Positions 2,282 through 35,743 of a stretch of DNA of 37,111 nucleotides are shown piece by piece. The notes under the pieces were generated by a model that made no database searches, was not told the origin of the DNA, and was given only the letters and a program-made list of their open reading frames with translations. The translations under genes were made by a program, and so were the position numbers. The DNA comes from Deltaproteobacteria bacterium. GTDB taxonomy: Bacteria > Desulfobacterota > Desulfobacteria > Desulfobacterales > ETH-SRB1. Within the stretch, counting starts at the first letter, position 1; every line of letters begins with the position of its first letter. The stretch lies in contig JAIVWD010000005.1 in NCBI GenBank assembly GCA_049190315.1, forward strand, positions 1 to 37,111, read 5' to 3'.

Positions 2282-2378
2282 ATTGAATATTGTCGATTGA
2301 ATATTGAATATTTGAGGAATCGCTTCGCTCTGTTTTTTTAAAAATTGACAGAATTCCTTCAATATTCAATCTGCAATA
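2282..2378. repeat. Inverted heptamer (ATTGAAT) array element with internal GGAAT and GCTTCGC cores
   Basis: Left arm ATTGAAT-ATTGTCG-ATTGAAT-ATTGAAT; right arm TTCAATATTCAATCTGCAATA is a ~21-bp inverted copy with 2 mismatches. Confidence 0.75.
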
Positions 2379-2392
2379 TAAAAGACTCATCA

Positions 2393-2427
2393 CCGCCCGT
2401 CTCGCAAGCGAGAGCGTTGCGGGCAGG
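2393..2427. repeat. Small GC-rich palindromic (REP-like) unit
   Basis: GCCCG-TCTCGC-AA-GCGAGA-GCGTTG-CGGGC hairpin in an AT-rich intergenic region. Confidence 0.55.
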
Positions 2428-2512
2428 CTAATGCAACTGACGACGGACAACTGGTTTAAACCCGAAACGCAGTTTATAACCATGCAAAGTATATGTTTGG
2501 AAGGTGGTTACT

Positions 2513-4156
2513 ATGAAATTTATAAATAAGATTATATTTTTCGTTTTATTGTCTTTGATTGTTTGTATTAATCCTCAGATAGTATGGGCATCAAAAATTA
2601 TTCAGTCAAGAATTGATGCTGTTACTGTATATCCGGATCGTGCCATGATTACGAGAACGGCTGATGTTGATTTAGTTAAGGGTAACCAGGAACTAATAAT
2701 TGATAATCTGCCTGCATATATAATTGATGATTCTGTTAGAGTTATGGGGCAGGGAAGTGTTAAGGCAAAAATAAGTGGAGTAAAGGTAAAAAGGATCTTT
2801 TTACAGGAGCACCAGCAGAAGAAGATAGAGGAATTGCGCAGAGAATTAGAAAAACTTAATGATGGAAAAAAGCAATTAGAAGATACTCTGGAAAGCCTGA
2901 ATACCCAGAAGGAGTTTATTGAATCAATCAAGATCAGCTCTTCAGATAAAATATCGAAAGAGCTTTATATTCAAAAAGCTGATACAAAAAACTGGGATAA
3001 AGTTTTAGATTTTATATATCAAAGACTTGGCAGGATAAATGAGCAGACAATTTTATTTGAGCAGAAAAAACGCGGTCTTCTCAAAGAAATTAAGGCCATA
3101 GAGGCTGAGCTGAATAGATATAGAAGCAAAAGATTGCCTGAAAAAAAGCTTGTAGAAATTGCCATCGAGGCTGCTGCTAAAGGTAGAATGACTTTAGAAA
3201 TTAATTATCTTATCCCTGGTGCCAGGTGGATTCCTGCTTATGATGTCAGAGTTGATTCGGAGAGTTCCGCTATTTGCTTAAATTATTATGGAATAATTAC
3301 ACAGAAAACAGGAGAAGACTGGAAGGATGTTAAACTGTCGCTGTCAACTGCCAAGCCACACATCTCAGGACTTTTGCCTGAATTAGATCCCTGGTATATT
3401 GATTTTCAACGGCCTGTTTTCAAGCAAGCCGGGAAAAGAGCGATGGCTGATACGGTTATGCAGGAAGCCTATAAGCTATCTTCACCTCAAGAGGAATTAA
3501 AACAGGAAACAGCATATGCTGAATCAAGAGGCACATCTGTTACGTTTAATATCAAAAAAAGAGAGACAATACCCGGAAAAGGCGAACCTTTTAAGACAAC
3601 AATTACCCAGGAAGAGCTCCAGGCAAAATTGAGCTATATATGTACGCCAAAGCTGTATGAATTTGCCTTTTTGAAGGCAGAGGTAGTTAATGCAACAGCA
3701 TATCCATTTCTGCAAGGAGAAGTCAGTATATTTTTAGGGGAAGATTATGTCGGCAAATCCAGAATTGAGACTATTCCCCTGAATAAAAGTTTTGATTTGC
3801 ATCTCGGGGTGGATGAGCGGATACATGTTGAAAGAAGGTTAATAAGAGAAGATACTGATAAGTCTTTTATTGGAAAAAAAGCAGTCCATAAATTTATGTA
3901 CAGGATTACTTTAGAGAATCTTATGAAAGAGGAGAAGACAATTATTGTTCATGATCAGGTTCCAGTCCCAAAGCATGGGGATATTCAGGTTAAACTGGTA
4001 AAATCCGTTCCCGCTCCTGTTTATAGAGAAGATATTCAAGATGGAAGCCCCGGTCTTCTCGAATGGAAACTCAACCTTTCTCCACAAAAGACTGAAACAA
4101 TCGAATTTGAATTTTCTGTTTCCTTTCCCAAGGATAAGAGAATAAGTCTATATTAG
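2513..4156 (+). CDS. DUF4140/DUF4139 (MuiA-like) exported protein
   Basis: Signal peptide, IDAVTVYPDRAMITR, coiled coil, ARWIPAYD, ITQKTGEDWKDVKLSLSTA. ATG at 2513 follows GGAAGGTGG (track start is GTG at 2504). Confidence 0.88.
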   Translation: MKFINKIIFFVLLSLIVCINPQIVWASKIIQSRIDAVTVYPDRAMITRTADVDLVKGNQELIIDNLPAYIIDDSVRVMGQGSVKAKISGVKVKRIFLQEHQQKKIEELRRELEKLNDGKKQLEDTLESLNTQKEFIESIKISSSDKISKELYIQKADTKNWDKVLDFIYQRLGRINEQTILFEQKKRGLLKEIKAIEAELNRYRSKRLPEKKLVEIAIEAAAKGRMTLEINYLIPGARWIPAYDVRVDSESSAICLNYYGIITQKTGEDWKDVKLSLSTAKPHISGLLPELDPWYIDFQRPVFKQAGKRAMADTVMQEAYKLSSPQEELKQETAYAESRGTSVTFNIKKRETIPGKGEPFKTTITQEELQAKLSYICTPKLYEFAFLKAEVVNATAYPFLQGEVSIFLGEDYVGKSRIETIPLNKSFDLHLGVDERIHVERRLIREDTDKSFIGKKAVHKFMYRITLENLMKEEKTIIVHDQVPVPKHGDIQVKLVKSVPAPVYREDIQDGSPGLLEWKLNLSPQKTETIEFEFSVSFPKDKRISLY

Positions 4157-4169
4157 TGGCAGGTATTTC

Positions 4170-4751
4170 CTATTTTGGGGAATAGTCCCCTTTTTTTAAA
4201 GCAGTAATAAGTTCTTGTCTGGACCGCACAGGCTCGTTGAAAAGTGTGATAACTTTCCCCAGTTCTTCAAGGCTATGTGCATCGCTTCCACCAACCTCAT
4301 GGATAGAGTAGATACTTCTCCATTTGTTCAGAAGTGCATTCTCGCTATTGCTGTTTCTCCCATTACGGCTTTCAACTATTCTGCACATTCCGTCAGCAAT
4401 CAGGTATTCCTGAGTTGGACGACTATGACGGAATGGATGCGCTGCTATAGCGACACCTCCAATTGAATCAACCCAGCGAAGAACTTCTGTTGCAGAAAGG
4501 TCGGGCAATACTTTATCAAATGGCCCGAATAAAAGAAAATCGCCATCTGAAGTGAAATATTCTACTCCAAAAATTATACAGAGCCCATTAGGCTGCATAC
4601 CTTCCTGTAGAAGATTTTGAACCTCAATGGTGTTGTGATCAGTGATGCATACACCATCAAGCCCACATGCCTGTGAGTAATTAATTATTTCATCAAGAGT
4701 CAGTTTACTGCATGGAGAAATAGTTGAATGAATATGTATATCAATTTTCAT
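4170..4751 (-). CDS. PHP-domain phosphoesterase
   Basis: DIHIHS, ITDHN, GVE, AAHPFR and GGSDAH metal-binding motifs. Confidence 0.9.
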   Translation of the reverse strand: MKIDIHIHSTISPCSKLTLDEIINYSQACGLDGVCITDHNTIEVQNLLQEGMQPNGLCIIFGVEYFTSDGDFLLFGPFDKVLPDLSATEVLRWVDSIGGVAIAAHPFRHSRPTQEYLIADGMCRIVESRNGRNSNSENALLNKWRSIYSIHEVGGSDAHSLEELGKVITLFNEPVRSRQELITALKKGDYSPK

Positions 4752-4767
4752 AATTTTAATTAATCGG

Positions 4768-5103
4768 TTTAAACCATTACCTCTGGTAGTGGTACCATAA
4801 AAAGGTTTTACCGTTACAGTAATTATTTAAGAGTGCCTAAAGTGCACTAAAGTGCCTAAAATGCCTAAAGTTAAGGAATCCTGCCATTTTATAACTGCCT
4901 GTCGGCAGGTGGGTTACTCTATGCTCTCAATGCGCTGGCAAGAGAGTGATTGCAAATCCTTGTGGCTTTGTTTATCAATCAGCACGCCGAAGGCGTACCA
5001 CAACTTTAGGCACTTTAGCTCACTTTAGGCACTTAGTGGTCTGTCAGGGTACCTTTGAGGGCTAATATAAACAAGCCACCTCCTCTGGGGTGGTAATTTG
5101 ACT
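4768..5103. mobile_element. Putative non-autonomous IS200/IS605-type element (paired subterminal hairpins, no transposase)
   Basis: Two similar hairpins with TCT loops in direct orientation: ACCATTACC-TCT-GGTAGTGGT (4773-4793) and GCCACCTCC-TCT-GGGGTGGT (5075-5094). The minus strand reads GTCAAATTACCACCCCAGAGGAGGTGGCTTG, like IS200/IS605 ends. Confidence 0.5.
4832..5035. repeat. ~200-bp element with inverted nonamer (AAAGTGCCT) tandem arms, copy 1
   Basis: AGTGCCTAAAGTGCACTAAAGTGCCTAAAATGCCTAAAG...CTTTAGGCACTTTAGCTCACTTTAGGCACT; an inverted second copy lies at 35532-35737. Confidence 0.85.
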
Positions 5104-5170
5104 ATGCTGTTTAAGCATGTTGAAGTCAAACAGGATTTATCTATACAAACCTTGTAGATTATCGTTAATG

Positions 5171-5370
5171 CCTAAGTTGAGCGATTTTTTGCGAAGAAAT
5201 GTGGTGCAGATCGAGTAAAAAATCGCTCGACTTAGGTAATATCAATGGACAATAAGTTCTTTTTAAACTATAATTATAATAGTCGTTTTGCCTCTAAGGC
5301 CCAAAGTCTCAAAGCAAGGGCGGCATCAGGATCTCGGCACATTTCTTCGCAAAAAAATCGCTCAACTTAG
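5171..5370. mobile_element. MITE-like element with ~40-bp terminal inverted repeats plus an internal third arm
   Basis: CTAAGTTGAGCGATTTTTTGCGAAGAAATGTG (from 5172) versus CACATTTCTTCGCAAAAAAATCGCTCAACTTAG (5338-5370); extra inverted arm AAAAAATCGCTCGACTTAGG (5217-5236). Confidence 0.7.
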
Positions 5371-5391
5371 CTTTTATAAGGAGTTTCTTTT

Positions 5392-6720
5392 ATGCCTTCA
5401 CATTGTATTTTGATACTCCTTGACGGTCTTGGTGATAGATCATTTTCATGTCTGGGATATAAGACCCCTCTTCAGGCAGCACACACACCACACTTAGATA
5501 CCCTGGCAAGCATAGGCGCAAATGGCCTTTTTCATGCCGATAGACCAGGCATTGCTCTGCCCAGTGAAAATGCTCATTTCTCTCTTTTCGGCTACGAACT
5601 CGATGAGTTCCCAGGCCGGGGTGCTCTGGAGGCTTTGGGTGCAGGCGTTGAAATATCTGTTGATGATGTTGCTGTTTTGGCTCACCTGGCAAGCGTTAAA
5701 GTTAAAGACAACACGCTTATACTTCAAAAAAGCCGACCAGATGCAAGTTCTGATGTGATATCAGCTTTGATTCAGGATATTTCTCACTATGAATATGAAG
5801 AAATCAAGTTTTGCTTTAAACATACCAGCGGTCTTAATGGAATACTGATCTTAAAAGGAACGGTTTCTCCTTATTTTACGGATTCCGATCCTGTTTTGGA
5901 GGGCAATTGTCTTATTGAAATTCAGCCGTTGCAGGATTTTGAAAAAGATCTTACTGCAATAAAAACAGCCAGGGCACTTAAAAAATATCTAATATGGTGC
6001 CATAAGAAACTGAGCGGAAATCAGGCGAACAGTATTAAAAATTCGAGAGGCGCTGTTCCGATTAATGCTCTGGTTACACAGCGTCCAGGGCGATTAAAGA
6101 CTGTGCAGTCATTTAAAAATCGCTGGGGATTGAAGGGACTTTCTATTTCATCCGGTCTTATATATTGGGGACTAAGTGCTTTTCTCGGGATCGATGTAAT
6201 GAAGGCGCGTGAAACAGATAATATCGAAGGTGACTTTACAGAGAGACTTAAGCTGGCCATGGAAAGTAAAAACAAGTATGATTTTATTCATGTACATACT
6301 AAAGCACCTGACGTGGCAGCTCACACAAAAAATCCTTATGCTAAAATTGCCGCCATTGAAGCGCTTGACCGTGGGCTTGGCAAAATTATTGACTCTTTGC
6401 TTAATGACAAAGAATCTCTGATAATCATTACTTCTGATCATTCTACTCCGAGTTCCGGAAAACTAATTCATTCAGGAGAACCGGTGCCGTTGTTAATTGT
6501 GGGTGAAGGGGTTCGCCGTGACTCTATAAAGTCATTTGATGAGGTTAACTGCGCCGGTGGGTCATTGGGGTTTGTACACGGCAAAGAATTTATGTATCTT
6601 GTATTAAACTATCTTGATCGTGCAAAACTTAAAGGTTTGATGGACACGCCTGTTGATCAGGCATTCTGGCCGGGCAAAACCAAACCTTTTCGGTTAGAGA
6701 ATCAGAATCAAAAATGCTAA
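5392..6720 (+). CDS. apgM: ApgM-like cofactor-independent phosphoglycerate mutase (alkaline phosphatase superfamily)
   Basis: LILLDGLGD, KTPLQAAHTPHLD, PSENAH, GRGALEALG, HTKAPDVAAH, TSDHSTP, HSGEPVP; AAGGAG ribosome-binding site upstream. Confidence 0.8.
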   Translation: MPSHCILILLDGLGDRSFSCLGYKTPLQAAHTPHLDTLASIGANGLFHADRPGIALPSENAHFSLFGYELDEFPGRGALEALGAGVEISVDDVAVLAHLASVKVKDNTLILQKSRPDASSDVISALIQDISHYEYEEIKFCFKHTSGLNGILILKGTVSPYFTDSDPVLEGNCLIEIQPLQDFEKDLTAIKTARALKKYLIWCHKKLSGNQANSIKNSRGAVPINALVTQRPGRLKTVQSFKNRWGLKGLSISSGLIYWGLSAFLGIDVMKARETDNIEGDFTERLKLAMESKNKYDFIHVHTKAPDVAAHTKNPYAKIAAIEALDRGLGKIIDSLLNDKESLIIITSDHSTPSSGKLIHSGEPVPLLIVGEGVRRDSIKSFDEVNCAGGSLGFVHGKEFMYLVLNYLDRAKLKGLMDTPVDQAFWPGKTKPFRLENQNQKC

Positions 6721-7268
6721 AAACAGGAGTCATACACGGTCGTTTCCAAATATTGCACAATGACCATATGAAGTATTTAATGGCCGGCAAGTCTTGTTGT
6801 CAAAACCTTGTTGTCGGCATAACAAACCCCGATCCAACGCTTACCTGCGATGATAAAACTGCTCCGGGAAGAAACAATCCATCAGCCAATCCAATGTCAT
6901 ATTATGAAAGATATATCATAATAAAAACCACTCTTTTAGAATATGGCTTTGGCATCCAGGAGTTTTCAGTTGTTCCACTGCCGATCAACCTCCCTGATTT
7001 GTATAAGTATTATGTTCCATTGGATGCCACTTTTTTTTTGACCATATATGATGAGTGGGGAGAAAAAAAATTAAGCGTGTTTGAATCCATGAACCTGAAA
7101 ACCAAAATACTTTGGCGCAGACCTTTAAGTAAAAAAGGGTTATCAGGGACTCAGATACGTCAATATATTATTTCAGGACAGCCCTGGGAACACCTGGTGC
7201 CACATACATCAGCTCGAATAATGAAGGAGATGGGTATCATAGAACGTATTAAGAAGTTTGTGCTGTAA
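6714..7268 (+). CDS. NadM-like cytidylyltransferase/NMN adenylyltransferase family protein
   Basis: GVIHGRFQILHNDH (HxGH-like), VVGITN, NPMSYYER, SGTQIR, WEHLVP; overlaps the upstream gene by 7 bp. Confidence 0.8.
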   Translation: MLKTGVIHGRFQILHNDHMKYLMAGKSCCQNLVVGITNPDPTLTCDDKTAPGRNNPSANPMSYYERYIIIKTTLLEYGFGIQEFSVVPLPINLPDLYKYYVPLDATFFLTIYDEWGEKKLSVFESMNLKTKILWRRPLSKKGLSGTQIRQYIISGQPWEHLVPHTSARIMKEMGIIERIKKFVL

Positions 7269-7288
7269 AAAAGATATAACTAAATTGA

Positions 7289-8593
7289 GTGATTTTTATG
7301 AATTTCATAGCTATAATTATTCTGGCCGCAATCGTTGTTGACTTTGTATTGAGTGGACTGGCTGATATACTGAATCTAAAGGGTTTAAAGACCGAACTCC
7401 CGGAATCGTTCAAGGGTTATTATGACGCAGACAGTTATCGCAAGTCTCAGGAATATCTGCGTGTTAATACAAAATTCGGATGGATTACATCTTCCTTTAA
7501 TATGTTATTAATCCTGATATTCTGGTTCGGGAAAGGCTTTCCAGTATTAGATCAATGGGTACGATCCTGGAATTTTGGATATATCATGACAGGCCTGTTA
7601 TACATAGGCTTATTGCTTTTATTTAAAGCAATTTTATCATTGCCTTTCAGCATTTATTCTACATTTGTTATTGAAGAGCGTTTTGGGTTTAATAAGACTA
7701 AATGGTCCACATTTATAATGGACCTAATAAAAGGATTTTTGTTATCGGTCCTGCTCGGCGCACCTCTTCTGGCAGGCATACTTGCTTTTTTTGAATATGC
7801 CGGGGCAAATGCCTGGCTGTATTGCTGGATAGCAGTAACAATATTTATGCTTGTTATTCAATTTATTGCACCAACATGGATTATGCCTCTTTTTAACAAA
7901 TTCAATCCTCTTGAAGATGGAGACCTGAAAAATGCTATCATGTCATATGCGCGTTCTATAAAATTCTCCCTTGAAAATGTTTTTGTAATGGATGGCTCTA
8001 AACGTTCTGCCAAGTCAAATGCTTTTTTCACAGGTTTTGGCAAGCACAAGCGGATTGTTTTGTTTGATACATTAATTAAACACCATACTGTGAATGAGCT
8101 GGTGTCAGTGCTTGCACATGAAATGGGGCATTTTAAGAAAAAGCATATACTACAGACAATGATTATCAGCATTGTTCAACTGGGAATAATGTTTTTTTTG
8201 TTGTCTGTTTTTGTCTCCTATCAGGGTCTTTTTGATGCTTTTTACATGGAACAAAAATCCGTTTATGCAGGATTGATTTTTTTCAGCATGCTGTATTCGC
8301 CCATTGAATTTTTTACAGGAATTTTAATGCAAATGCTTTCCCGTAAAAATGAATATGAGGCAGATAGATTTGCTGTGGAAACCACTCAAGATCCCCAATC
8401 CATGGCAGATGCATTGAAAAAACTTTCGGTTAACAATCTTTCAAACCTTATCCCGCATCCGTTTTATGTTTTTTTAAACTATTCTCATCCGCCGGTTTTG
8501 GAAAGAATTAAAGAAATTATGACTGCAGGGATCGGGGATCAGGGATCGGGGATCAGGGAGCAGTTGAAGGCTGAAGGTGGTGGAAGGAGTTAA
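7289..8593 (+). CDS. M48 family (Ste24-like) membrane metallopeptidase
   Basis: Multiple TM helices, DGSKRSAKSNAFFTG, HEMGH zinc motif, NEYEADRFA, YSHPPVLER. Confidence 0.93.
   Translation: MIFMNFIAIIILAAIVVDFVLSGLADILNLKGLKTELPESFKGYYDADSYRKSQEYLRVNTKFGWITSSFNMLLILIFWFGKGFPVLDQWVRSWNFGYIMTGLLYIGLLLLFKAILSLPFSIYSTFVIEERFGFNKTKWSTFIMDLIKGFLLSVLLGAPLLAGILAFFEYAGANAWLYCWIAVTIFMLVIQFIAPTWIMPLFNKFNPLEDGDLKNAIMSYARSIKFSLENVFVMDGSKRSAKSNAFFTGFGKHKRIVLFDTLIKHHTVNELVSVLAHEMGHFKKKHILQTMIISIVQLGIMFFLLSVFVSYQGLFDAFYMEQKSVYAGLIFFSMLYSPIEFFTGILMQMLSRKNEYEADRFAVETTQDPQSMADALKKLSVNNLSNLIPHPFYVFLNYSHPPVLERIKEIMTAGIGDQGSGIREQLKAEGGGRS
8526..8577 (+). repeat. Heptamer tandem repeat (TCRGGGA then GCTGAAG-type) within the M48 3' end
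   Basis: CAGGGA TCGGGGA TCAGGGA TCGGGGA TCAGGGA GCAG..TGAAGGC TGAAGG, translated as GIGDQGSGIREQLKAEG. Confidence 0.75.
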
Positions 8594-8595
8594 TT

Positions 8596-9384
8596 ATGGG
8601 CCAAAAAAATATTAGGCTGATTTCGTGGAATGTTAATGGACTTAGAGCCGTGATGAAGAAGGATTTTCATAAATCTTTAAAGAATATGGATGCAGACATT
8701 GTTGCTTTACAGGAAACAAAGATTCAGGAACCTCAGCTTACAGAAGAAATGAAGAATATTGACGGCTATGAATCATACTGGTCTTTTTCCACTGTCAAGA
8801 AAGGATACAGCGGCATTGGGGTTTATACAAGGATAAAACCCAGGAATGTTAAATATGGTATCGGCGTATCAAAATATGATGATGAGGGGCGTATTATTGA
8901 AATGGATTTTAAAAACTTCATTTTTTTTAATATATATTTTCCAAACGGACAGATGAGCGAGGAAAGACTTCAGTACAAACTTGATTTTTACAGGGATTTT
9001 TTTGAATATATTGATGCTTATAAGGATAAAGGAAAATGTTTGATAATAGCCGGCGATTACAATACCGCTCATAATGAGATTGATTTGAAACACCCGAAGG
9101 CAAATGAAAAAAGGTCCGGCTTTCTGAGGATTGAGCGCGACCGGATGGATATGATAGTTAGAAACGGCTATGTTGATACGTTCAGATATTTATATCCGGA
9201 TAGAGTAAAATATTCATGGTGGACATACAGGTTCAATGCCAGGGCTAATAATGCAGGCTGGCGTATTGATTACTTCTTTGTAACGCAGAATATTATTGAT
9301 AAAGGGTGGCTCAGGGAAGCATTTATTGATAACGATGTTTATGGATCTGATCATTGCCCGGTAGGTATAGATGTGAAGATTTAA
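8596..9384 (+). CDS. xth: Exodeoxyribonuclease III / AP endonuclease
   Basis: SWNVNGLRA, LQETK, GYSG, EGR, YFPNG, GDYNTAH, YSWWTYR, GWRIDY, GSDHCP. Confidence 0.95.
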   Translation: MGQKNIRLISWNVNGLRAVMKKDFHKSLKNMDADIVALQETKIQEPQLTEEMKNIDGYESYWSFSTVKKGYSGIGVYTRIKPRNVKYGIGVSKYDDEGRIIEMDFKNFIFFNIYFPNGQMSEERLQYKLDFYRDFFEYIDAYKDKGKCLIIAGDYNTAHNEIDLKHPKANEKRSGFLRIERDRMDMIVRNGYVDTFRYLYPDRVKYSWWTYRFNARANNAGWRIDYFFVTQNIIDKGWLREAFIDNDVYGSDHCPVGIDVKI

Positions 9385-9468
9385 GTGCCCGGTGGTAAGC
9401 CCGAGGCTATCTATCCGCTGAACACGTCAAAGCTTTTTCGGTGTATTCAAGTCGGAGGAATGAAAGTC

Positions 9469-10497: not shown

Positions 10498-10693
10498 GGC
10501 TCAATTGATGAATTATTTGATGCGTTGCACGGAAGGTTGTAAACCATGAAAACAGCTTGTGTGGCTTTTGCTTCCACACTACCAGAATACACATCATGTC
10601 CAACTATAATTTTACGTGGTGCACTTTGAAGTTGAATTCACCAAAACAAAACCAACTTTTAGGCTATGAATTCAGAAACAGGGCACAGAGAGC

Positions 10694-11650: not shown

Positions 11651-11708
11651 GAATCTATTTTCCCAATCAGTTGCTATTGCGGCTTGTTACCAGTAACTTT
11701 TCCCAAAT

Positions 11709-13247: not shown

Positions 13248-13272
13248 ATCAAACATCTTTAGGGGACTGACT

Positions 13273-15549: not shown

Positions 15550-15570
15550 TTGCATAATTGTTTTTAGTAT

Positions 15571-15721
15571 CTTAAGAGTCCATAGTTCTTTCTAACCCCA
15601 TGAATTTTAAAGAAATATCCTATTGACCGAACCGTCATTCCCGCGAAGGCGGGAATCCAGCAAAATCAATGGGTTATGGATTCCTGCCTTCGCAGGAATG
15701 ACAGAACTTTGGACTCTTAAG
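15571..15721. mobile_element. MITE with 19-bp TIRs and 7-bp TSD carrying a REP doublet
   Basis: CTTAAGAGTCCATAGTTCT / AGAACTTTGGACTCTTAAG (18/19 match); TTAGTAT directly repeated at 15564-15570 and 15722-15728. Confidence 0.85.
15634..15702. repeat. REP-like inverted doublet
   Basis: GTCATTCCCGCGAAGGCGGGAATCCA...TGGATTCCTGCCTTCGCAGGAATGAC; a half copy CTTCGCAGGAATGAC lies at 2146-2160. Confidence 0.85.
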
Positions 15722-15757
15722 TTAGTATAAATCAGGATATATATTATAGGCACTAAA

Positions 15758-16930: not shown

Positions 16931-18101
16931 TCCCATTGGCATAAAAATTGGAGGAGCAGAAACCTTTATTAAAGGGTTTATTAAGTATGCGCCGGAAGAT
17001 TTTGATATAAATTTTATAGGAATAACTTCAAACGTCGAAGAACGACCAGTTAATAGATGGATGAAGTTATATTTAGGCAGTAAAAAATTTAATTTTTATC
17101 CATTATTATTTGAGCGTGATGAAAATAAGAAAACAACAATTCCTTTATCTTTACGTTTTACATTAGCTTTAAAGTTAGCGAATATAAAAGTTGAGAAAGG
17201 AGTTCTTTTTTTTAATAGAATCGAGCCTATGATATTGTTTAGGAAAATAAAGTTGCCTAAGATTGCAATTATTCATAGTGATATTGAAAAGCAAGTTGGA
17301 GAAAGCGAAGTATTATGGAGCAAATTTCCCTATATGTATTTTCTATATGAAAGTTTTATTTTAAAAAATTTAGATTATCTTTATACTGTCAGCAAAAATT
17401 CGTTGAAATTTTACCAATCAAGATATCCCCAAAAAAAAGAAAAATTTTCATTTTTACCAACATGGGTAGATGCGGAAATATTTTATTCTAAGAATGGCTC
17501 TAAAGCTTTAATGAGAAAAAAATTAAAACGTGTAAATGAAACTTTGCCGATTGATGGGAAATGGATCCTGTTTGTAGGAAGATTACAAAAAGCTAAAGAG
17601 CCGATGAGGTTAGTGGATAGCTTCTTTGAATGCTATAAGAAAAATAAAGAATCATATCTTATTATTATTGGCGAAGGGAATTTGCGAAGGAAAATAGAAG
17701 CGTACGTAGAGAAACTAAAAATACAAAAAAATATTTTTTTTCTTGGGAATATGCCTCAAAGGGTATTAGCTGATTTTTATAGAGCTTCGAATGTGTTATT
17801 ATTGGCAAGCAACTTTGAGGGCATGCCCATGTGTGTTTTGGAAGCGTTGGGGAGTGGTGTGCCTGTGGTAACAACTGAGGTGGGAGAAGTGAAACGCATT
17901 GTAAGAAATGGATTTTCCGGTGAAGTAGTTAAGAGCTTTTCGCCATTGATTATTGCGCAAGCGCTCTTAAAGGTACTGCATGATTCCGTCATATATTCGA
18001 AAAGTAATTGTGTTGAATCTGTCTCAGCATATACACCCCAAAAGGCCTTAGGACCGGTCTATGAAAGAATCCGAGAATTATATAAGAAAAAATACTCGTA
18101 A
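16896..18101 (+). CDS. Glycosyltransferase family 4
   Basis: IGGAE, LFVGRLQKAK, SNFEGMPMCVLEALGSGVPVV. Confidence 0.92.
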   Translation: MPVQLYIIYPYDPIGIKIGGAETFIKGFIKYAPEDFDINFIGITSNVEERPVNRWMKLYLGSKKFNFYPLLFERDENKKTTIPLSLRFTLALKLANIKVEKGVLFFNRIEPMILFRKIKLPKIAIIHSDIEKQVGESEVLWSKFPYMYFLYESFILKNLDYLYTVSKNSLKFYQSRYPQKKEKFSFLPTWVDAEIFYSKNGSKALMRKKLKRVNETLPIDGKWILFVGRLQKAKEPMRLVDSFFECYKKNKESYLIIIGEGNLRRKIEAYVEKLKIQKNIFFLGNMPQRVLADFYRASNVLLLASNFEGMPMCVLEALGSGVPVVTTEVGEVKRIVRNGFSGEVVKSFSPLIIAQALLKVLHDSVIYSKSNCVESVSAYTPQKALGPVYERIRELYKKKYS

Positions 18102-18269
18102 CTACTCAGGTGGATAGGCTGAAGGCTGAAGACTGTTAGGAAAAAGTGCATTTTGAAGCCATGTTTGGTGCAAGAATCAGATGTTTCCGCTAAAGTATGG
18201 CAATCGTGCTCTTCTGACCCCTTCAGCCTTTAGCCTAAACAGCTTCAGCCTGACTATGTGAGTAGTCAC
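18098..18269. mobile_element. MITE with GTAACTACTCA termini, internal inverted heptamer arrays and 8-bp TSD
   Basis: GTAACTACTCA (18098-18108) / TGAGTAGTCAC (18259-18269); inner GGCTGAA-GGCTGAA-GACTG versus CTTCAGC-CTTTAGC-...-CTTCAGCC; flanks AAATACTC / AAATATTC. Confidence 0.8.
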
Positions 18270-18308
18270 AAATATTCTTAAAAGATAGAAAAAGGTGTCA
18301 AATATTTT

Positions 18309-20259: not shown

Positions 20260-20440
20260 AGGGCTCGGTAAAAAATAACTTGGCATTTTTACATCCCGAC
20301 TTCACCATATCTTTAACCGATCTTCATTCGCAAAAATCCTCGAAATAGCTCGCTATTCCTGCGGTTTTGCTCAATTAGATCAATTAAATCTACGGCAAAT
20401 TTGGGCGCAAATTCTACCAACTTATTTTTGACCGAGCCCT
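20260..20440. mobile_element. MITE (IS5-like termini), copy 1, between the two convergent EPS arms
   Basis: AGGGCTCGGTAAAAAATAACTTGG / CCAACTTATTTTTGACCGAGCCCT TIRs flanked by TA on both sides; near-identical inverted copy from 37008. Confidence 0.85.
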
Positions 20441-21366
20441 TATTGCCCTAAAGAAACAAGAATCTTTTTTATTCTCTTTTTTAGTTCTCTCCACGATGGA
20501 AATATTCCATGTAATTGGGCAACCATTTCATTAAGCGTGGCATCATCTGAGACTGCCATAACCTTCAAGGCGTAAACGTTTGTATTGAGTGTATTCCATC
20601 CAACATCGACAGTCCTGGCGGATTGGTAGCCGGCTTTTTGCAAATAATCTATTTCACGGTCACCATAATCGCCGTTCGGATAGGCAAAGTGGGTTACCGG
20701 CGAGTTCAAGATATTCTCTAAGTCCTCTTTGGCGCCGACAATTTCCTGTAAGCTAAGGTCATCAGAGCACCTGACCAGAATAGGATGGGTACGAGTATGG
20801 CTTTGAAAGTCGATACCATTATGTTTCATTTCTAATATTTCTTTGATCGACAAGGCCTGTCGAACAGTGAATTCTTTTTCCGGGGTATAACCATTGAATG
20901 AAAAGAGTTTTTTGAGACGAACCGAGTTCGGCAGTTCCTTGAGTTGCTTTGCCTGTTCGGTAAAATCAATAAACCAATAATGGCGAGATGTACCAACTAT
21001 CTGGGAACAGATGTATATTGTAACCGGAACGTTATATTTTTCAAGCACCCCTAATATAGAGAAGTTCCGCTTATGTCCATCGTCGAATGTGATTATCAGA
21101 CTTTTGGGAGGAATCATTTGTCGGTCGTTGCTTCGAATAGCGTCAACGAGACGTTGTAAGGAAATAATAGTAAAGTGTTTTGTTATATAGGCCAGGTGGC
21201 TCTCAAGTATGTGAGGCTCCGGGGCATGGTACATTATGATGGTTGCTTTTGTACGGCAGATTGTTTCCCTGATCAGGAGAGCCAACCCTGAGTACCGTAT
21301 TAAGAAGGCAAGAAATCTCCTCATTGTTTGTCCCTTAATTAGAAAGGTTCTTATCGTTTTAATCAA
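20440..21366 (-). CDS. Polysaccharide deacetylase (CE4, IcaB/PgaB-like)
   Basis: IIMYH, ITFDDG, SHTRTH, FAYPNG. Confidence 0.9.
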   Translation of the reverse strand: MIKTIRTFLIKGQTMRRFLAFLIRYSGLALLIRETICRTKATIIMYHAPEPHILESHLAYITKHFTIISLQRLVDAIRSNDRQMIPPKSLIITFDDGHKRNFSILGVLEKYNVPVTIYICSQIVGTSRHYWFIDFTEQAKQLKELPNSVRLKKLFSFNGYTPEKEFTVRQALSIKEILEMKHNGIDFQSHTRTHPILVRCSDDLSLQEIVGAKEDLENILNSPVTHFAYPNGDYGDREIDYLQKAGYQSARTVDVGWNTLNTNVYALKVMAVSDDATLNEMVAQLHGIFPSWRELKKRIKKILVSLGQ

Positions 21367-21387
21367 CCTGCGCAGGATGGATTCGGT

Positions 21388-22644: not shown

Positions 22645-22658
22645 TTAAAAGAATAGTA

Positions 22659-23357: not shown

Positions 23358-23387
23358 TGCCGGGTGTCTCCATTAATTGTCTCGTAA

Positions 23388-24848: not shown

Positions 24849-24869
24849 ATTAAACTACCTTTAAATTTT

Positions 24870-25886: not shown

Positions 25887-25927
25887 TTTTTTCCTCTCTT
25901 AAATAATAAGTCTTTTATCAGGTTCTC

Positions 25928-27550: not shown

Positions 27551-27563
27551 AAGCCTCGAAGCC

Positions 27564-27664
27564 GGTTTCAGAGTTCAAAGGTTCAGTTTGTGCTTTTCAT
27601 ATCAATCTTCATTGCTTTCTAACCTTGAACCGTGAACCTTGGAACTTTGAACCTGGGTAGTTAC
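27564..27664. repeat. Heptamer (CCTTGAA/CCGTGAA) inverted array ending in a TGGGTAGTTAC terminus
   Basis: GTTTCA-GAGTTCA-AAGGTTCA ... CCTTGAA-CCGTGAA-CCTTGGA-ACTTTGA-ACCTG-GGTAGTTAC; the right end resembles the terminus of the 18098 MITE. Confidence 0.65.
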
Positions 27665-27709
27665 ATTATTTCAATTGCAATTTTTCCTGGTATATTGATC
27701 GCTTTTCCC

Positions 27710-29026: not shown

Positions 29027-29085
29027 TGAAAAATCTCCAGTAAATTATTCATTTACGTTGTCAGAATGGTAATAAAGGCAATAAA

Positions 29086-29110
29086 CTCGAGGAGGCCTCG
29101 AGACTTTTTT
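29086..29110. terminator. Possible bidirectional intrinsic terminator
   Basis: CTCGAGG-AGG-CCTCGAG stem, followed by a T-tract on + and by TTTATT on -. Confidence 0.35.
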
Positions 29111-29147
29111 ATTCGCTGAAGAAATTTGTTCAATCTCGTTTGGGTCT

Positions 29148-29200
29148 GATTCCCCGCAGCTTGCTGCGGAACAGGATCCAAGGCTTGCCCTAGGGTTCAA
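29148..29200. repeat. GC-rich hairpin pair (REP-like or IS200/IS605-end-like)
   Basis: CCGCAGC-TT-GCTGCGG (29154-29169) followed by CCAAGGCTTGCCCTAGG. Confidence 0.45.
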
Positions 29201-29286
29201 ACCATTGATTTCTCATCATAGATGAATTTATTAAACTATTTTATGTTATGTTTTATGTCAAACAAAAAATATTCATTAAGAAAAAA

Positions 29287-30906
29287 TCAATCGTTTTCAC
29301 ATCTGTTGAGTCCTTCTTTTGCCCTGGCATAGAACTGATCATCTGAATGAGACTCCAGACATTTCTTATACTTTTGTATGGCCTCCTTGACTTGTCCCAG
29401 TTTTTCATAGCTCTGAGCCGCAAGAAAATTGGCATGCGGATACTGTGGTCCCAGCTTCAGAGCTCTTTTAGCCTCATGTAATGCCTCATCATACCTGGAT
29501 AGTGAAAAGTAGATTTCTCCCATTGTGTAGTAAACATCGGGGTATGACACTTTTTTAGACAAGAGGTATTCCCCATGCCTTAAGGCTTCCTGAAATTTGC
29601 CCAGATTCTTCAAAGTCTTGCACAGGTTAATGCGAGCCTGAACGTATTCCGGATTTAAACGAATCGCCTCGTGGAAGACCTTTTCAGCTTCCTTTGTTCG
29701 GTTTAGTCTTAGATACAGGGTTCCAAGGGTGTTATAGAGGTCCGGATATGTAGGATGTTGCTTCAAATAATCTTTAACAAGAGGAATGAACGTTTCCCAA
29801 AGTGACGTATCCTCTTTGGAAAATTCCTTTATCTTTATGAAAGAGAGCATTTCAGAAAACGTTGGCATGATATCTAAATGCTTATTAATTTCCTTTATTG
29901 CTTCCATAAGGGATTTATCACCACCGAGAATTTGGTCAAGTGCTTCAGATTTTTTTTTCCTATAATATGATGGTTTGGCGACTATATCGCGCATGGTGAG
30001 TATTGTACCCTTCAGGTTTTTATCATCAGGGTCAAGGCGACCAGCCCCCTCAAGTTCTTCCAGTGCCGCATCAAATTTTTCCTCACGGCAATATAGTATT
30101 GCAAGTTTTATTTTTGCATTCTTATAGTCGGGGTTAATCTGCAGCGATCGCTTAAAGCACTTAACAGCCTTGCCAATTTCATTACGACTTGCGAAAATGA
30201 TCCCCAAAAAATACTGTATATCTGAATATTCAGGAAATTTTTCATTCAAGAAGGAGAAGTTTTTGAGAGCTTCGTCAAATTTGCCCAAATAGGTTTGGGT
30301 GATCCCCAATTTTATTCGTGCATCCACGTAATTAGGGTTAATCTCCAGTGCCTTTTGAAATGCGTTTATAGCTTCGATAAGATTTGTCTCCCCCAAAAGG
30401 GCAAGACCCATATGAAAATGGACATCAGCATAATCGGGATGTTTTGTTAATATTTCTTTGTAAATTGACATAGCCCTATTCCACATTTTAAGATTATGGA
30501 GTGTGATTGCGAGCTTAAACTTGGTTGGCAGATGGTCCGGGTTGAACCGAAGAATATGGTTGAAAGCCTTTACAGCGTCTTTACACCTTCCAATATTATT
30601 CAAACAAACACCAATGAAGTAATAAAGATCAACATGTTCGGGGTTTAATTCAAGGGCCTTCTGAAATTTCTGGAGCGCACTTGAAGTATTACCGGTTGCA
30701 AAAAGCACAATCCCCAGGTTACGATACGCTTGAGCACGGTAGAACTGGGCCAGATTACGTTCAAGATTTAAAAATGGTGATTTTCTTTCTAATACATTTT
30801 GAAACTGTTCAATGGCTTCTCTGTACATATGGCGGTTGTAATAGTGCATCCCCTTTTGATAGCCTTTGTCTATGCCAAAATTAAACAAATGTTTTAAAAA
30901 GCTCAT
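29287..30906 (-). CDS. Tetratricopeptide repeat protein
   Basis: Many TPRs (ALELNPEHVDLYYFIG, YADVHFHMG, ALEINPNYVDARIKLG, YPDLYNTLG); no signal peptide. Confidence 0.92.
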   Translation of the reverse strand: MSFLKHLFNFGIDKGYQKGMHYYNRHMYREAIEQFQNVLERKSPFLNLERNLAQFYRAQAYRNLGIVLFATGNTSSALQKFQKALELNPEHVDLYYFIGVCLNNIGRCKDAVKAFNHILRFNPDHLPTKFKLAITLHNLKMWNRAMSIYKEILTKHPDYADVHFHMGLALLGETNLIEAINAFQKALEINPNYVDARIKLGITQTYLGKFDEALKNFSFLNEKFPEYSDIQYFLGIIFASRNEIGKAVKCFKRSLQINPDYKNAKIKLAILYCREEKFDAALEELEGAGRLDPDDKNLKGTILTMRDIVAKPSYYRKKKSEALDQILGGDKSLMEAIKEINKHLDIMPTFSEMLSFIKIKEFSKEDTSLWETFIPLVKDYLKQHPTYPDLYNTLGTLYLRLNRTKEAEKVFHEAIRLNPEYVQARINLCKTLKNLGKFQEALRHGEYLLSKKVSYPDVYYTMGEIYFSLSRYDEALHEAKRALKLGPQYPHANFLAAQSYEKLGQVKEAIQKYKKCLESHSDDQFYARAKEGLNRCEND

Positions 30907-30941
30907 TATCGCTTCTCCTATCCTACCGGTTGGCTGACTCT

Positions 30942-32402
30942 TTATCGTGCGCCCCTGCGCGAAAGGACGGCAGGGATTGTTTTTATAAGGATTTTCAAGT
31001 CAAGAGCAAACGACCATTTTTCAATATACATAAGGTCAAGTTTCATCCATTCATCAAACCTGATATCGTTTCTTCCACTCACCTGCCAGAGACAAGTTAT
31101 TCCCTGCTTCACAGATAGCCTCTTCTTTTCCCAAGGCCTATATTGGCGGACTTCCGTGAATATAGGCGGCCTTGGTCCAACCAGACTTATATCACCTTTG
31201 AGAACATTGAAAAGTTGGGGGAGTTCGTCCAGGCTTGTTTTTCGCAAAAATCGGCCGATCCGTGTCAAGCGCGGGTCATTTATAATCTTAAAGGCAGGGC
31301 CATCCATCTCGTTTAAATGCCACACTTTTTCCAGAAGCTTCTCTGCATCTGCGACCATCGAGCGGAATTTATACATGATAAAACGCCTGCCATGCTTGCC
31401 AATCCTTTCCTGGCGGAACAATATAGGACCAGGAGAATCCATCTTTATGAGAATGGGCATGACCACCCATAGGGGCAGGCAAAGAAAAATAAGAATGGCT
31501 GATGCCATAAAATCAAAAAGGCGTTTTATGAATTGTATTGTCGGATTTTGGAAAACATACTTAAGAAATACCATTGAAACACCCCCAAGATGTTCTACGA
31601 AAATATTTCCGTCCTCTTCTATATGAGTAGATGTGGTAAAGGCAAAATCCAGGCCTTCTGCCTTGCAACGTTGTACAACCATGTCTATCTTTGACAAGTA
31701 ATCTTTATTACCTTCAAAAAGAATACAGTCAACAACGTTATTCTTAAGAACGGCGTCCAAATGGTCTACTCTGCCGATAACAACATGATTCGAAATCCTG
31801 TCCCCAACCTTTTTCTTGCCATTTGAAAGAAACCCAACCACTCTCATGCCCCACTCAGGATGCGTATCAATGATATGAGCAGACTTTAAAGCCTTATCAT
31901 TTGTTCCAACGATTAAGACGAACTTTATGAGATTGCTTTTTCCCCGGTCATGCCGCATAAGCCAAGAAACAGACATTTTGTTGATGGCAAACAGAGGCCA
32001 TGAAAGGACAACAAACACGATTACAAAACAAATACTGCCCTTGAGAGCAGGGAACACAAACAAAAGAGCAAGAAAGATTCCAGCCATCAGCAAGCAGGGT
32101 ATTGCTGACCGAAGTAAAATCTTTTTGAAGTAAGGGCTGCTGGTATGATAGTCCCTGTAGACAAAGTAGATTTGGGCAATCGGTAACAGCAAAAGCAGAG
32201 GGACAAGATTCAAATACCGATTCCAGTAAAAAGGCAGGTCAAAACGGGTGAGATAGGAATGATGGGGTAGTGGAAACAGGTCGCCGGTCAGGTTCGTGAT
32301 TTCAAATGAGAGTGGGGCGCTGATAGCATATATAATAATAACAATTGCGTAATTTATTAACAACTGAAGTGGAGCAAAATATTCTTCCTGTTCTCTTAGC
32401 AT
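30942..32402 (-). CDS. Priming polyprenyl-phosphate glycosylphosphotransferase (WcaJ/WbaP family)
   Basis: Four N-terminal TMs, VLIVG Rossmann-like domain, KRLFD, YKFRSM, DPRLTRIGRFLRKTSLDELPQ, GPRP, GITCLWQVSGR. Confidence 0.93.
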   Translation of the reverse strand: MLREQEEYFAPLQLLINYAIVIIIYAISAPLSFEITNLTGDLFPLPHHSYLTRFDLPFYWNRYLNLVPLLLLLPIAQIYFVYRDYHTSSPYFKKILLRSAIPCLLMAGIFLALLFVFPALKGSICFVIVFVVLSWPLFAINKMSVSWLMRHDRGKSNLIKFVLIVGTNDKALKSAHIIDTHPEWGMRVVGFLSNGKKKVGDRISNHVVIGRVDHLDAVLKNNVVDCILFEGNKDYLSKIDMVVQRCKAEGLDFAFTTSTHIEEDGNIFVEHLGGVSMVFLKYVFQNPTIQFIKRLFDFMASAILIFLCLPLWVVMPILIKMDSPGPILFRQERIGKHGRRFIMYKFRSMVADAEKLLEKVWHLNEMDGPAFKIINDPRLTRIGRFLRKTSLDELPQLFNVLKGDISLVGPRPPIFTEVRQYRPWEKKRLSVKQGITCLWQVSGRNDIRFDEWMKLDLMYIEKWSFALDLKILIKTIPAVLSRRGAR

Positions 32403-32675
32403 TGGCTCTTAAGTCATGTAATGATTTGTTGGCAACTGACCATTGGCTTAACTTCTGCGCTATTCACGACAGAAATTGTGAACTTGCAAAATGTGAAGTA
32501 TCGGCAAGAATTTTAGATCTCAAGCTTTTTACCCCTAAATGAGGGTTAATAGCTTATATTTTATTTTTTATAAAGCCATTATAACTATAATATAATACCA
32601 CAAATTGTAAAAAGATCAAAGGAGAAATTGAAAACTAAATACTCAAAATAGTATCAATCATCCCCTTGATTCACC

Positions 32676-32704
32676 TTGACACGTGGCAGTTTTATAAGTA
32701 ACTT
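32676..32704 (+). promoter_or_regulatory. Putative sigma70 promoter of ileS-lspA-lgt
   Basis: TTGACA (32676-32681), 17-bp spacer, TAACTT (32699-32704); GGAGG at 32733-32737. Confidence 0.55.
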
Positions 32705-32741
32705 TTAAAGTTCAAAACCTATAATTAATTATGGAGGATGC

Positions 32742-35552
32742 ATGGACTATAAGAAGACACTCAACCTTCCGGTTGCAAAGTTTCCCATGAAAGCTAATCT
32801 ATCTAAGCGTGAGCCTGACCAGTTGGAATCATGGAAGGAGAGCTGTTTATACGATAAGATAAGAAATGCTTCCAAAGGGCGGGAAATGTTTATCCTGCAT
32901 GATGGCCCTCCTTATGCAAATGGTAATATTCATATTGGTACGGCTCTTAATAAAATTCTGAAAGATATTATTGTGCGTTCACGTCAGATGTCCGGTTTTG
33001 ATGCTGTTTATGTGCCGGGCTGGGACTGTCACGGGCTTCCTATTGAGCATAATGTTGACAAGGAGCTTGGATCTAAGAAAAAAGATATTTCTCAGACAGA
33101 TTTCCGCAGATTATGCAGATCATATGCAGAAAAATATGTTGATATCCAGCGTGAAGAGTTCAAGCGTCTTGGTGTTATGGGGGAATGGGACAATCCCTAT
33201 TTGACGATGAATTACAATTATGAATCTATAATTGCACGGGAGTGCTGCAAGTTTGCTCTGGATAACAGTCTTTTCAGGAGCAAAAAACCTATACACTGGT
33301 GTTGCAGTTGTAAGACAGCTCTTGCGGAAGCGGAAATCGAACATCATGACGAGCCTTCGCCCTCAATATTTGTTAAATTTCCTTTAATAGACGACCCTGG
33401 TATTACCGCGTTGAAAGATAAAAAGGTCAATTTGATTATATGGACTACAACGCCCTGGACCTTACCCGCAAATCTTGCCGTGGCGCTTCATCCTGATTTT
33501 GTTTATGCAGTTGTTGAAACAGGAGATGATGAGGTTTTTATTCTTGCAAAAGATCTTGTTGACAGTTGCATGAGAATTTTTGGAATTTCTGATTTTTCCA
33601 TAATCGCAGAGATTGATGCTAAAAAGCTTGAGCATAAAAAATGCCGTCATCCTCTCTATAACAGGGAATCCCTTATTATCCTTGCTTTGCATGTCACACT
33701 GGATGCAGGGACCGGATGTGTTCATACTGCTCCCGGGCACGGGCGTGAGGATTATGAAATCGGGCTCTTATATGATCTGGACCCTTATTCTCCGGTAAAT
33801 GAAAAAGGCTGTTTTACTGATGATGTTGAGTTCTTTAAAGGCCAGTTCGTATTTAAAGCCAATAACGGTATTATTGATAAATTGAAGGATTCCGGGGTAC
33901 TTGTTGCCCAGGAATCAATTTCGCATTCCTATCCGCACTGCTGGCGTTGCAAGAAGCCTGTTATATTTAGAGCAACTCCGCAGTGGTTTATATCTATGGA
34001 CAAAACAGGCCTGAGAGAGAAAGCTCTTGATGAAATAGACAGGGTTGAATGGATTCCTGCCTGGGGTAGAGAAAGAATTCACGGAATGATTAAAAATCGA
34101 CCGGACTGGTGTGTGTCCAGGCAGCGGGCATGGGGTGTGCCTATAACTTTATTTTATTGTGAAAAATGTGAGTCTGTATTCATAAATCATGAAACAGTAA
34201 ATAAAATTTCAGAGCTTTTTGAAAAACATGGAGCAGATATCTGGTTTGAAAAACAAGCCGAAGAATTTCTTTCGCAGGACGCTGTGTGTCAAAAATGCGG
34301 GCATAATAAATTTATTAAAGAAACAGATATTCTGGATGTCTGGTTTGATTCAGGTGTGAGCCATGCGGCGGTTCTAGAACAGCGCTCGAATTTAAAATGG
34401 CCTGCTGATCTTTATCTCGAAGGAAGTGATCAGCACAGGGGCTGGTTTCACAGCTCACTTTTAACAGCCGTTGGTACAAGAGGCAGGGCTCCTTACAAGT
34501 CGGTATTAACTCATGGTTTTGTTGTTGATGCAAAAGGAAGAAAGATGTCCAAATCCATTGGGAATGTTATTGCTCCAAAGAAAGTTATTGATAGATATGG
34601 AGCTGAAATTCTTCGTCTATGGGTTTCTGCATCTGATTACAGGGATGATATAAGGATTTCTGAAAACATCTTAAAACAATTAAGCGATTCATACAGGCGG
34701 ATCAGAAATACCTGTAGATTTATGCTTGGTAATTTATATGATTATGATCCGAAAACAGACAGGGTGCCATATGAGTCAATGCCTGATATTGACAAGTTTG
34801 CTTTGCACAAGCTGCAGGGACTCATTGAGAAAACTCTGAAAGCCTATGAAACTTTTGAGTTCCATGTTATATACCATGCGCTTCACAATTATTGTACTCT
34901 CGATCTTTCTGCTTTTTATCTGGATATTCTTAAAGACAGGCTTTACACATCACCTCCGCAATCAATTGAACGAAGAAGTGCTCAGACCGTAATACATACA
35001 ATACTGGATTCTGTTGTCAGGATTATGGCTCCCATACTTTCTTTTACGGCAGAAGAGGTTTGGGAGTTTATGCCGGATATCAAAGAAAAAGAATCCAGCG
35101 TTCATCTTTCTTCTCTGCCAAAAGCAAATGAGAGCTGGAAAAATGAAAAACTGGCGCAAAAATGGGAAGCTATAATCAGGGTAAGAGGTGAAGTGACAAA
35201 AGCTCTTGAAGAGGCAAGAGCAAAAAAGAAAATAGGGCATTCTCTTGATGCAGTTGTTACAATCAGTGCAAATGAAGAACTGTATGAAGAACTGTATGCT
35301 TATGAAGAAGACTTGAGAACCATATTTATTATTTCAGGAGCTTCTCTTATTAAAGGAGAAAAATTAGATAAAGCTTATAAAAGCACGGATATCGAAGGAC
35401 TTGATATACTCGTTGAGCCGGCGAGTTCTGATAAATGTGAACGCTGCTGGATACACGATCCTTCCGTCGGCTTAAATTCTGAGCGCCCAACTATTTGCAG
35501 CCGCTGTGAAAAGGCGCTGGAGAAAATTAAAAAAGTGCCTAAAGTGAGCTAA
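32742..35552 (+). CDS. ileS: Isoleucine--tRNA ligase (type 1)
   Basis: [50 protein letters not shown]-terminal CERCW...CSRC zinc finger. Confidence 0.98.
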
Positions 35553-35737
35553 AGTGCCTAAAATGCCTAAAGTTGTGGTACGCCTTCGGCGTGTTATATA
35601 TATTCAGGGCTTGATTATAACTTCAGTCGGAAATAAAGTGAGCAAAATTGTATGGAAAAAATTAAAATTGGTAGTGCCCAAGGCACATTCCTTAACTTTA
35701 GGCACTTTAATATACTTTAGCTCACTTTAGGCACTTA
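35532..35737. repeat. Nonamer-arm element, copy 2 (inverted), overlapping the ileS stop codon
   Basis: AAAGTGCCTAAAGTGAGCTAAAGTGCCTAAAATGCCTAAAGTTGTGGTACGCCTTCGGCGTG closely matches the reverse complement of the copy-1 right arm, with one extra unit; right arm ATTCCTTAACTTTAGGCAC...CTTTAGGCACTTA. Confidence 0.85.
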
Positions 35738-35743
35738 CGTTTT

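Follow-up and report, generated by a model that had tools for sequence, protein, structure and literature searches.

Tandem repeats with units of 7-9 bases have been reported for decades between the genes of bacteria, among them cyanobacteria, giant sulfur bacteria, Xanthomonas and Geobacter, without an explanation of their origin. The S23p, or four-helix-bundle, protein family is also widespread, and to our knowledge it has no role assigned to it outside the diversity-generating retroelements. In this paper we looked at three intergenic elements with such repeats in a stretch of 37,111 nt (the window), which is one complete contig (JAIVWD010000005.1) of a draft genome of 3.27 Mb (357 contigs, 41% G+C) from the Desulfobacterales (GCA_049190315.1). 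Each element has two inverted arrays of 7- or 9-nt units (the arms), which enclose two conserved inner cores. Based on our analysis we suggest, with a probability of roughly 0.78, that these elements are gene-less miniatures of a palindromic cassette of ~520 bp, which carries a four-helix-bundle gene of the type found in intervening sequences (IVS), and that they form an abundant non-coding foldback repeat. The genome would then tie intergenic short tandem repeats to the S23p/four-helix-bundle gene family, with the cassette and hundreds of miniatures in one place.

The most similar described system is the IVS of rRNA. In Coxiella it was described as a selfish insert with inverted repeats, an S23p open reading frame (ORF) and tandem heptamers, of which there are two or three depending on the strain, and an older idea is cited there, that the IVS ORF serves mobility (Warrier et al., 2016, PMC4990558, in the part of its text that is accessible). 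The likeness to the elements described here lies in a selfish insert of a few hundred nt that is bounded by inverted repeats, a gene from the same protein family, an ORF that is prone to decay, and adjoining tandem heptamers in a number that varies among strains. In contrast to the IVS, which lie in helix 25 or 45 of the 23S rRNA, the elements here are found between ordinary genes, and protein genes flank every copy examined, on one side or on both. They also have long arrays on both sides, most copies are gene-less and number hundreds, and they have conserved, unequal inner cores with a mini-hairpin, which the accessible text on the IVS does not describe (PMC4990558).

Three other descriptions come close in the design of the arrays. 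In Geobacter metallireducens, 'global regulator binding sites' consist of two arrays, one per strand and a variable distance apart, of four octanucleotides or five heptanucleotides in tandem (Aklujkar et al., 2009, PMC2700814). Like the elements here they have inverted short-unit arrays, a variable interior, an intergenic position and several related classes in one genome, in a bacterium of a related phylum; they were read there as putative protein-binding sites, however, and the available portion of the paper reports no gene-carrying form, cores or insertion polymorphism. In Xanthomonas, 70-75 convergent pairs of heptamer arrays exist per genome, and closely related species have the same type of site with a different length, but one G-rich unit was studied as a quadruplex former and no link to a core or a gene is reported in the accessible text (Rehm et al., 2015, PMC4692102). 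Direct heptamer repeats were described in giant sulfur bacteria (PMC4679880, accessible part). A preliminary description of the window, made from its sequence, recognised no described system with this layout, but the same design had been published earlier for the IVS, Geobacter and Xanthomonas, as far as the accessible parts of these papers go. In our literature search, with subscription papers and supplements outside its range, no paper was found that ties gene-less intergenic array hairpins to the four-helix-bundle gene family.

The preliminary description had placed three elements in the window, each with an array, a core, an A+T-rich spacer, a GAA-loop hairpin and an inverted array, and we found all three in these positions and with this layout (Table 1). 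In general the elements are long imperfect palindromes with a centre that is A+T-rich or variable and a bulged mini-hairpin on one side. Followed from the arm towards the centre, the right core has the sequence of the left core plus an inserted mini-hairpin of 8 nt. The ends also differ from each other: left and right cores deviate in two letters, a difference that is conserved from one arm class to another, with no compensation on the partner strand. Element 2282-2379 is predicted to fold into a long hairpin from which a mini-hairpin bulges out (z -5.5); none of 200 shuffles folded as well, and the same was found for element 4832-5035, with both strands of the elements far better than shuffles. 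Homologues of element 2282-2379 with 75-96% identity are present in all 26 genomes of the taxonomic family. The third element, between ileS and lspA, had been described as a repeat of the type of 4832-5035. It has 9-mer arms as well, but its inner part is inverted, its spacer is unrelated and both cores have a hairpin. This variant with hairpins on both sides is common, and its second core has 29 copies in the genome, all adjoining 9-mer arms. The ileS frame extends 21 nt into the 9-mer arm (35532-35552), and its stop codon comes from the arm.

Table 1. Coordinates of the array-armed elements and their parts in the window.
Feature	Position	Strand	Basis or remark
Family member with 7-mer arms, short	2282-2379	-	whole element; minus-strand reading
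Right inner core: left core plus 8-nt GAA-loop mini-hairpin (2321-2328)	2312-2332	-	sequence reading; hairpin predicted
Centre of the short element, A+T only	2333-2346	.	sequence reading
Left inner core, 13 nt, without hairpin	2347-2359	-	exact core-pattern match
Left end, with hairpin, of a palindrome-associated transposable element (PATE; IS200/IS605-derived, gene-less)	4763-4831	+	on another contig this end is followed by an IS200-family tnpA
Family member with 9-mer arms (4832-4872, 5004-5035)	4832-5035	+	fold z -6.4
Left inner core	4873-4885	+	exact core-pattern match
Right inner core with GAA-loop hairpin (4985-4995)	4980-5003	+	sequence reading
Right end, with hairpin, of the PATE	5036-5100	+	ends match tnpA-carrying copy elsewhere
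Family member with 9-mer arms (35532-35572, 35696-35737)	35532-35737	-	inner part inverted relative to 4832-5035
Hairpin-bearing core, longer type	35573-35593	-	97% complementary to 4983-5018
Second core: left-core type plus its own inserted hairpin	35670-35695	-	sequence reading

By pattern and reference-based searches, the three window elements are confirmed as members of a family of intergenic hairpin repeats with well over 100 copies in the genome. The 13-nt left core is present in 37 exact copies and its 18-nt version in 24, while a reversed 18-nt control had no match in all 401 genomes searched. The two GAA-loop hairpin cores were found 86 and 143 times, compared with ~12 and ~2 copies expected from base composition. 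Between 9-mer arms and inner cores we counted 385 junctions, 283 of them with at least one full unit. The plain left core adjoins four arm classes (51, 16, 13 and 17 copies), the short hairpin core six (16, 26, 10, 16, 2 and 2 copies) and the longer hairpin core two (117 and 12 copies). The cores are kept while the arm unit changes, as had been noticed from the window; cores and arms combine freely, and the same cores are found with at least four arm classes. Genome-wide there are 2376 tandem arrays with a period of up to 20, of which 766 have period 7 and 415 period 9, and 139 different heptamer units exist. Although ORFs cover 79% of the genome, 66 of 69 copies with a defined direction lie outside the ORFs of a crude prediction.

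A full cassette with the 9-mer arms and the cores of this family is located on another contig (C92, locus L156:1413-1931). It consists of a 9-mer arm, a left core with a hairpin, a ribosome-binding site, an ORF of 117 amino acids, its stop, a core and an inverted 9-mer arm. The ORF product matches TIGR02436 with 86.5 bits (cut-off 24) and was assigned to PF05635/TIGR02436, the S23p family of 23S-rRNA IVS. Four close homologues (81-93% identical) are encoded in three genomes of three other genera, and in all five loci the gene lies between the same 9-mer arms and cores. The preliminary description had advised a search for an ORF between the arms, with a four-helix bundle as one candidate, and this cassette and its four relatives in other genera are the positive answer. 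Cassette and miniatures were shown, by comparison of their sequences, to have arms and cores in common.

The connection is not limited to this cassette. There are 23 matches to PF05635 in this genome, whereas only one of 14 control genomes has any. Twelve of the genes are full-length, and 10 of these lie between inverted arrays according to the repeat search, one more by eye, and the twelfth is located where a contig starts. Nearly all intact PF05635 genes of this genome are shown to be wrapped in inverted short-unit arrays. The array units have 7, 8 or 9 nt, and for ten genes the paired arrays are ~375-500 nt apart. Closely related proteins were shown to have arm units in common, and distantly related ones to have units that are unrelated: paralogues that are at least 75% identical have the same or nearly the same units in all three groups, and those below 55% identity have unrelated units. 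Gene-less members of two sister families retain the start or the 3' half of the four-helix-bundle gene, as in a 257-nt gene-less copy on contig C4, which retains the 3' half.

Another question that is raised by these elements is whether they move. The miniatures were shown to be gained and lost between congeners as units, arms included. One 9-mer copy, on contig C2, is found in this genome but not in congener G005, and its joint has a direct repeat of 4-5 nt. A copy on contig C4 is absent from four congeners, and three genomes have another copy, which two lack together with its flanking modules. Other filled and empty pairs are blurred by adjoining modules or replaced spacers, and a search for paralogous empty sites within the genome gave none for the window family and only short variants for sister families. 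The ileS-lspA spacer (35553-35743) is a turnover hot spot. It was compared in 11 congeners (loci L036-L046; one spacer was masked and one contig ended), and each readable congener has a different array element there, between flanks with 86-98% identity, with one spacer of only 60 nt.

Some copies were shown to lie inside an element derived from IS200/IS605. Element 4832-5035 is such a case, and it is the cargo of the PATE at 4763-5100. The hairpin ends of this PATE are common with a tnpA copy and its insertion is duplication-free, by a fixed short target; congener homology ends at 4762, and contigs of other runs skip 4760-5103. A sister-family member at 18090-18269 has a fixed terminal repeat outside its heptamer arms, and a DNA contig from a different run skips it cleanly, its joint having 5 shared letters; gene-carrying copies of this sister family are located on contigs C224 and C182.

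A mechanism that fits these data is that the miniatures arose by internal deletion of the cassette, as MITEs (miniature inverted-repeat transposable elements) arise from insertion sequences, and that arms and cores together would be the ends recognised by the mobility machinery. The presence of the same cores beside different arms may be explained partly by arms that diverged together with the gene lineage while the cores were kept, and partly by recombination between elements at shared cores, for which copies with two arm classes can be cited as a direct sign. Slippage and unequal exchange would keep the arrays changing. Our best guess for the mover is a factor supplied in trans, in which case the four-helix-bundle protein may be a cofactor and not the catalyst.

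Several observations weigh against this interpretation. We know of no strand-cutting activity in a four-helix-bundle protein. The genome has a single gene-carrying copy with these cores, compared with roughly 190 miniatures, and the clade of the C92 protein was not found in 12 congeners, which nevertheless hold many miniatures, so the gene is not needed nearby and perhaps not at all. A copy with 7-mer arms and a gene inside was not found among the 12 full-length genes here, and two further genomes gave adjacency only. In congener G004 a gene is flanked by two 7-mer elements of the window family, but with the cores outside the arms; its product is 35% identical to the C92 protein, which itself is only 13-27% identical to its paralogues in this genome. 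The three window copies have no PF05635 gene inside, and their interiors have no recognised gene remnant, although no sensitive search for one was made. The C2 copy is the only clean filled and empty pair for the family, and its insert overruns one arm by 16 nt (12 nt if 4 nt count as target duplication). Finally, 137 of the 283 9-mer arms abut other recurrent modules, and the repeats form a mosaic.

The arms themselves were shown to change by whole units and by reordering, which supports this part of the preliminary interpretation: the unit number at orthologous sites of other assemblies differs by one to three units, and the unit order is permuted among copies. The length of the interiors is variable too, between 7 and ~230 nt, and nested insertions are found in them. 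It had also been stated that the two arms of each element match each other. This is true for the unit family, but the unit order is usually different. By a crude parse of 99 paired 9-mer elements only one has identical unit strings in both arms, and the commonest pairing, with 14 elements, joins two different unit orders. Rare chimeras with two kinds of arms were also shown to exist, with 8 mixed counts compared with 113 of the same class, and these 8 represent ~6 distinct elements among ~120 paired.

Such changes could also suggest that slippage made the arrays grow in place between genes, that small hairpins arrived there independently, and that there is no single element at all. This would agree with the 1383 of 1990 arrays that have no partner, with the changes of unit number at orthologous sites and with paralogues that hold one, two or many units. 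It would hardly produce ~180 arms with the same four-unit make-up, nor the excess of inverted over direct pairs of arrays (297 and 26), and whole elements with both arms and both cores appear together at sites that are empty in congeners. We consider this explanation highly improbable.

At three joints of array-armed elements there are direct repeats of 4-6 nt, which would fit a staggered cut better than a Y1 enzyme. They also speak for an ordinary MITE of a DDE transposon, in which the tandem units would be multiple transposase-binding sites per end and the gene a passenger. Mu, Tn7 and IS21 have multiple transposase-binding sites at each end, the arms here have a fixed mode of four units (181 of the 283 arms with at least one full unit), and the inequality of the ends is conserved across arm classes. 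Yet this would require a separate transposase for each arm class, and no transposase gene was found between such ends in the genome, by core spacing or among array pairs 0.7-8 kb apart; the four-helix-bundle gene is the sole gene repeatedly found between such arms. Apart from it, core spacing, these array pairs and neighbouring core matches gave only ordinary genes between separate elements; the C92 copy was missed by these searches because its second core is a variant. We therefore see the DDE explanation as rather improbable.

The elements do resemble MITEs and PATEs, as they are small, non-coding, multi-copy and insertion-polymorphic, have terminal inverted repeats, and would have a gene-carrying parent and an origin by internal deletion. 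The difference is that the parent here has no recognisable transposase and carries a four-helix-bundle gene instead, and that the ends are arrays of tandem units which vary in number, in order and even in the unit. Drosophila foldback transposons have long inverted ends made of short tandem repeats, variable in number, around a variable middle; they are an analogy only, as they are eukaryotic, far larger and unrelated in sequence. The earlier judgement that the elements are neither classical MITEs with fixed terminal repeats nor plain REPs (repetitive extragenic palindromic sequences) is supported by our data.

The likeness to REPs and REPINs (REP doublets forming hairpins) includes inverted doublets of GC-rich hairpins, copies that lie between genes by the hundreds and form a mosaic with other modules, and a lineage in which genes similar to RAYTs (REP-associated tyrosine transposases) are plentiful. 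One possible option is that the elements are REP- or REPIN-like repeats which a Y1 (HUH) enzyme, either RAYT-like or an IS200-type TnpA, moves in the form of hairpins of single-stranded DNA, with the GC mini-hairpins as recognition sites. The genome has 15 Y1_Tnp matches, and a group of paralogues of 320-350 amino acids has a RAYT-like N-terminus (73.4 bits, cut-off 80) and a helix-turn-helix tail similar to the C-terminal domain of DnaA. Such proteins are found in all 26 genomes of the family, with 1-21 matches each, and their genes have inverted repeats of 17-27 nt preceded by reiterated end units, a similar design. In addition, IS200/IS605-type ends directly adjoin 20 of 283 9-mer arms, an entire PATE and its cargo, a sister of the window composite, is missing from two congeners without any duplication, and the GAA-loop mini-hairpin is a very stable motif of single-stranded DNA (PMC13037366, in its accessible part). 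What makes this option unlikely is that the cores were found beside none of the 13 Y1 genes of this genome with flanks read, and beside none of 13 related loci scanned (out of 30). Most copies have no IS200/IS605 ends, the tandem-unit arms have no REP counterpart, and the one clean insertion has a direct repeat of 4-5 nt, whereas IS200/IS605 transposition makes none. The RAYT-like paralogues have diverged (contigs C6, C76, C179, C170, C275, C298 and C248), and each has its own inverted repeat, the outer part of which is reiterated in front; one such repeat has 16-31 genomic copies.

The long hairpins can also be considered at the level of RNA, as an RNase III site, stabiliser or attenuator that is kept for its function in transcripts. 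In rRNA, the inverted ends of the related IVS form a stem that is cut by RNase III (PMC4990558, accessible part). Of 55 placed elements, 40 lie between co-directional genes, and contigs of RNA libraries cover the elements. These 40 show no orientation bias, however, as 23 copies point with their neighbours and 17 against. Rfam 15 gave no match at gathering score in the whole window, and promoter and terminator consensus scans gave no site inside the three elements (no GC stem with a T run). The interiors are variable in length, as described above, and the orthologous ileS-lspA spacer holds entirely different elements in the congeners. In heterotypic copies the arms are unable to pair, so that the stem cannot form. 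The RNA-library cover is about the same order as the copy-number excess in DNA runs, and the contigs show neither ends nor strand. We find a function in transcripts very unlikely. The structured RNA with a freely varying closing stem, which had been offered as one reading of the elements, is not supported, given the same orientation counts and unpairable arms, the lack of Rfam matches and the lack of compensatory pairing in the cores. An RNA gene was also considered and rejected, given the absence of orientation bias and of Rfam, promoter or terminator matches, the variable spacers, and the presence or absence of copies together with their arms between congeners.

A different role for RNA would be as an intermediate in a small retro-mobile element. 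RNase III may cut the long hairpin out of host transcripts, as with the rRNA IVS, an Avd-like four-helix-bundle protein may bind this RNA and recruit a reverse transcriptase, and the copy would return to gene spacers. Reiterative copying at the ends would make the tandem arm units, which would account for arms that grow, shrink and reorder while the cores stay. Compatible with this are a faint likeness of one PF05635 paralogue to Avd of diversity-generating retroelements (23.6 bits, cut-off 80), six reverse-transcriptase matches in the genome, the unit-wise changes of the arms and the miniatures that thrive without a gene nearby. We see this as an improbable alternative. On contig C50 (~1978-3627) a weak match to PF05635 lies immediately upstream of a reverse-transcriptase gene and on its strand, which is the arrangement of a diversity-generating retroelement.

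The distribution of the cores beyond this genome is also of interest. The 18-nt left core was found in 45 of 401 genomes sampled from the class, among them 17 of 19 from the window's own family, and it is patchy elsewhere. Exact 21-nt matches in other assemblies are labelled as uncultured Desulfobacteraceae and relatives. In other families of the order (loci L086-L105) the 18-nt left core adjoins GC hairpins of a different kind, lies within another MITE family or has inverted ends that are not tandem. Seven exact 18-nt core matches in the whole collection of viral contigs were judged to be near chance, by a rough estimate. Since 12 congeners have been sequenced, among which single copies are gained and lost, and since the organism is present in public metatranscriptomes, protein binding, cutting and joining, and the making of arrays become testable. 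The elements also matter for annotation, as they fill a large share of the gene spacers, break assemblies and once supply the stop codon of an essential gene (ileS).

Other mobile elements and repeats are present in the window. An IS1595-family insertion sequence at 137-1214 encodes a transposase of 322 amino acids (DDE_Tnp_IS1595 with a zinc ribbon) inside inverted repeats of 46 nt. At 5166-5236 there is a 71-nt MITE with inverted ends of 20 nt, which is absent from congener G010 and from contigs of four runs, where the joint has 4 shared letters. On another contig, heptamer arrays lie inside the ends of a related element. At 15561-15731 there is a small inverted-repeat element with ends of 32 nt and an inner GC hairpin; a contig of run X7 has 19 other letters in its place, and a relative of it forms a clean insertion on contig C2. 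The segments 20337-20451 and 36997-37111 are the arms of a 115-nt inverted repeat (93% complementary), one of which lies at the very end of the contig. One-sided heptamer arrays are located in gene spacers at 8526-8563, 27621-27654 and 36233-36260, and at the first of these sites two congeners hold ~240-260 nt of different sequence instead.

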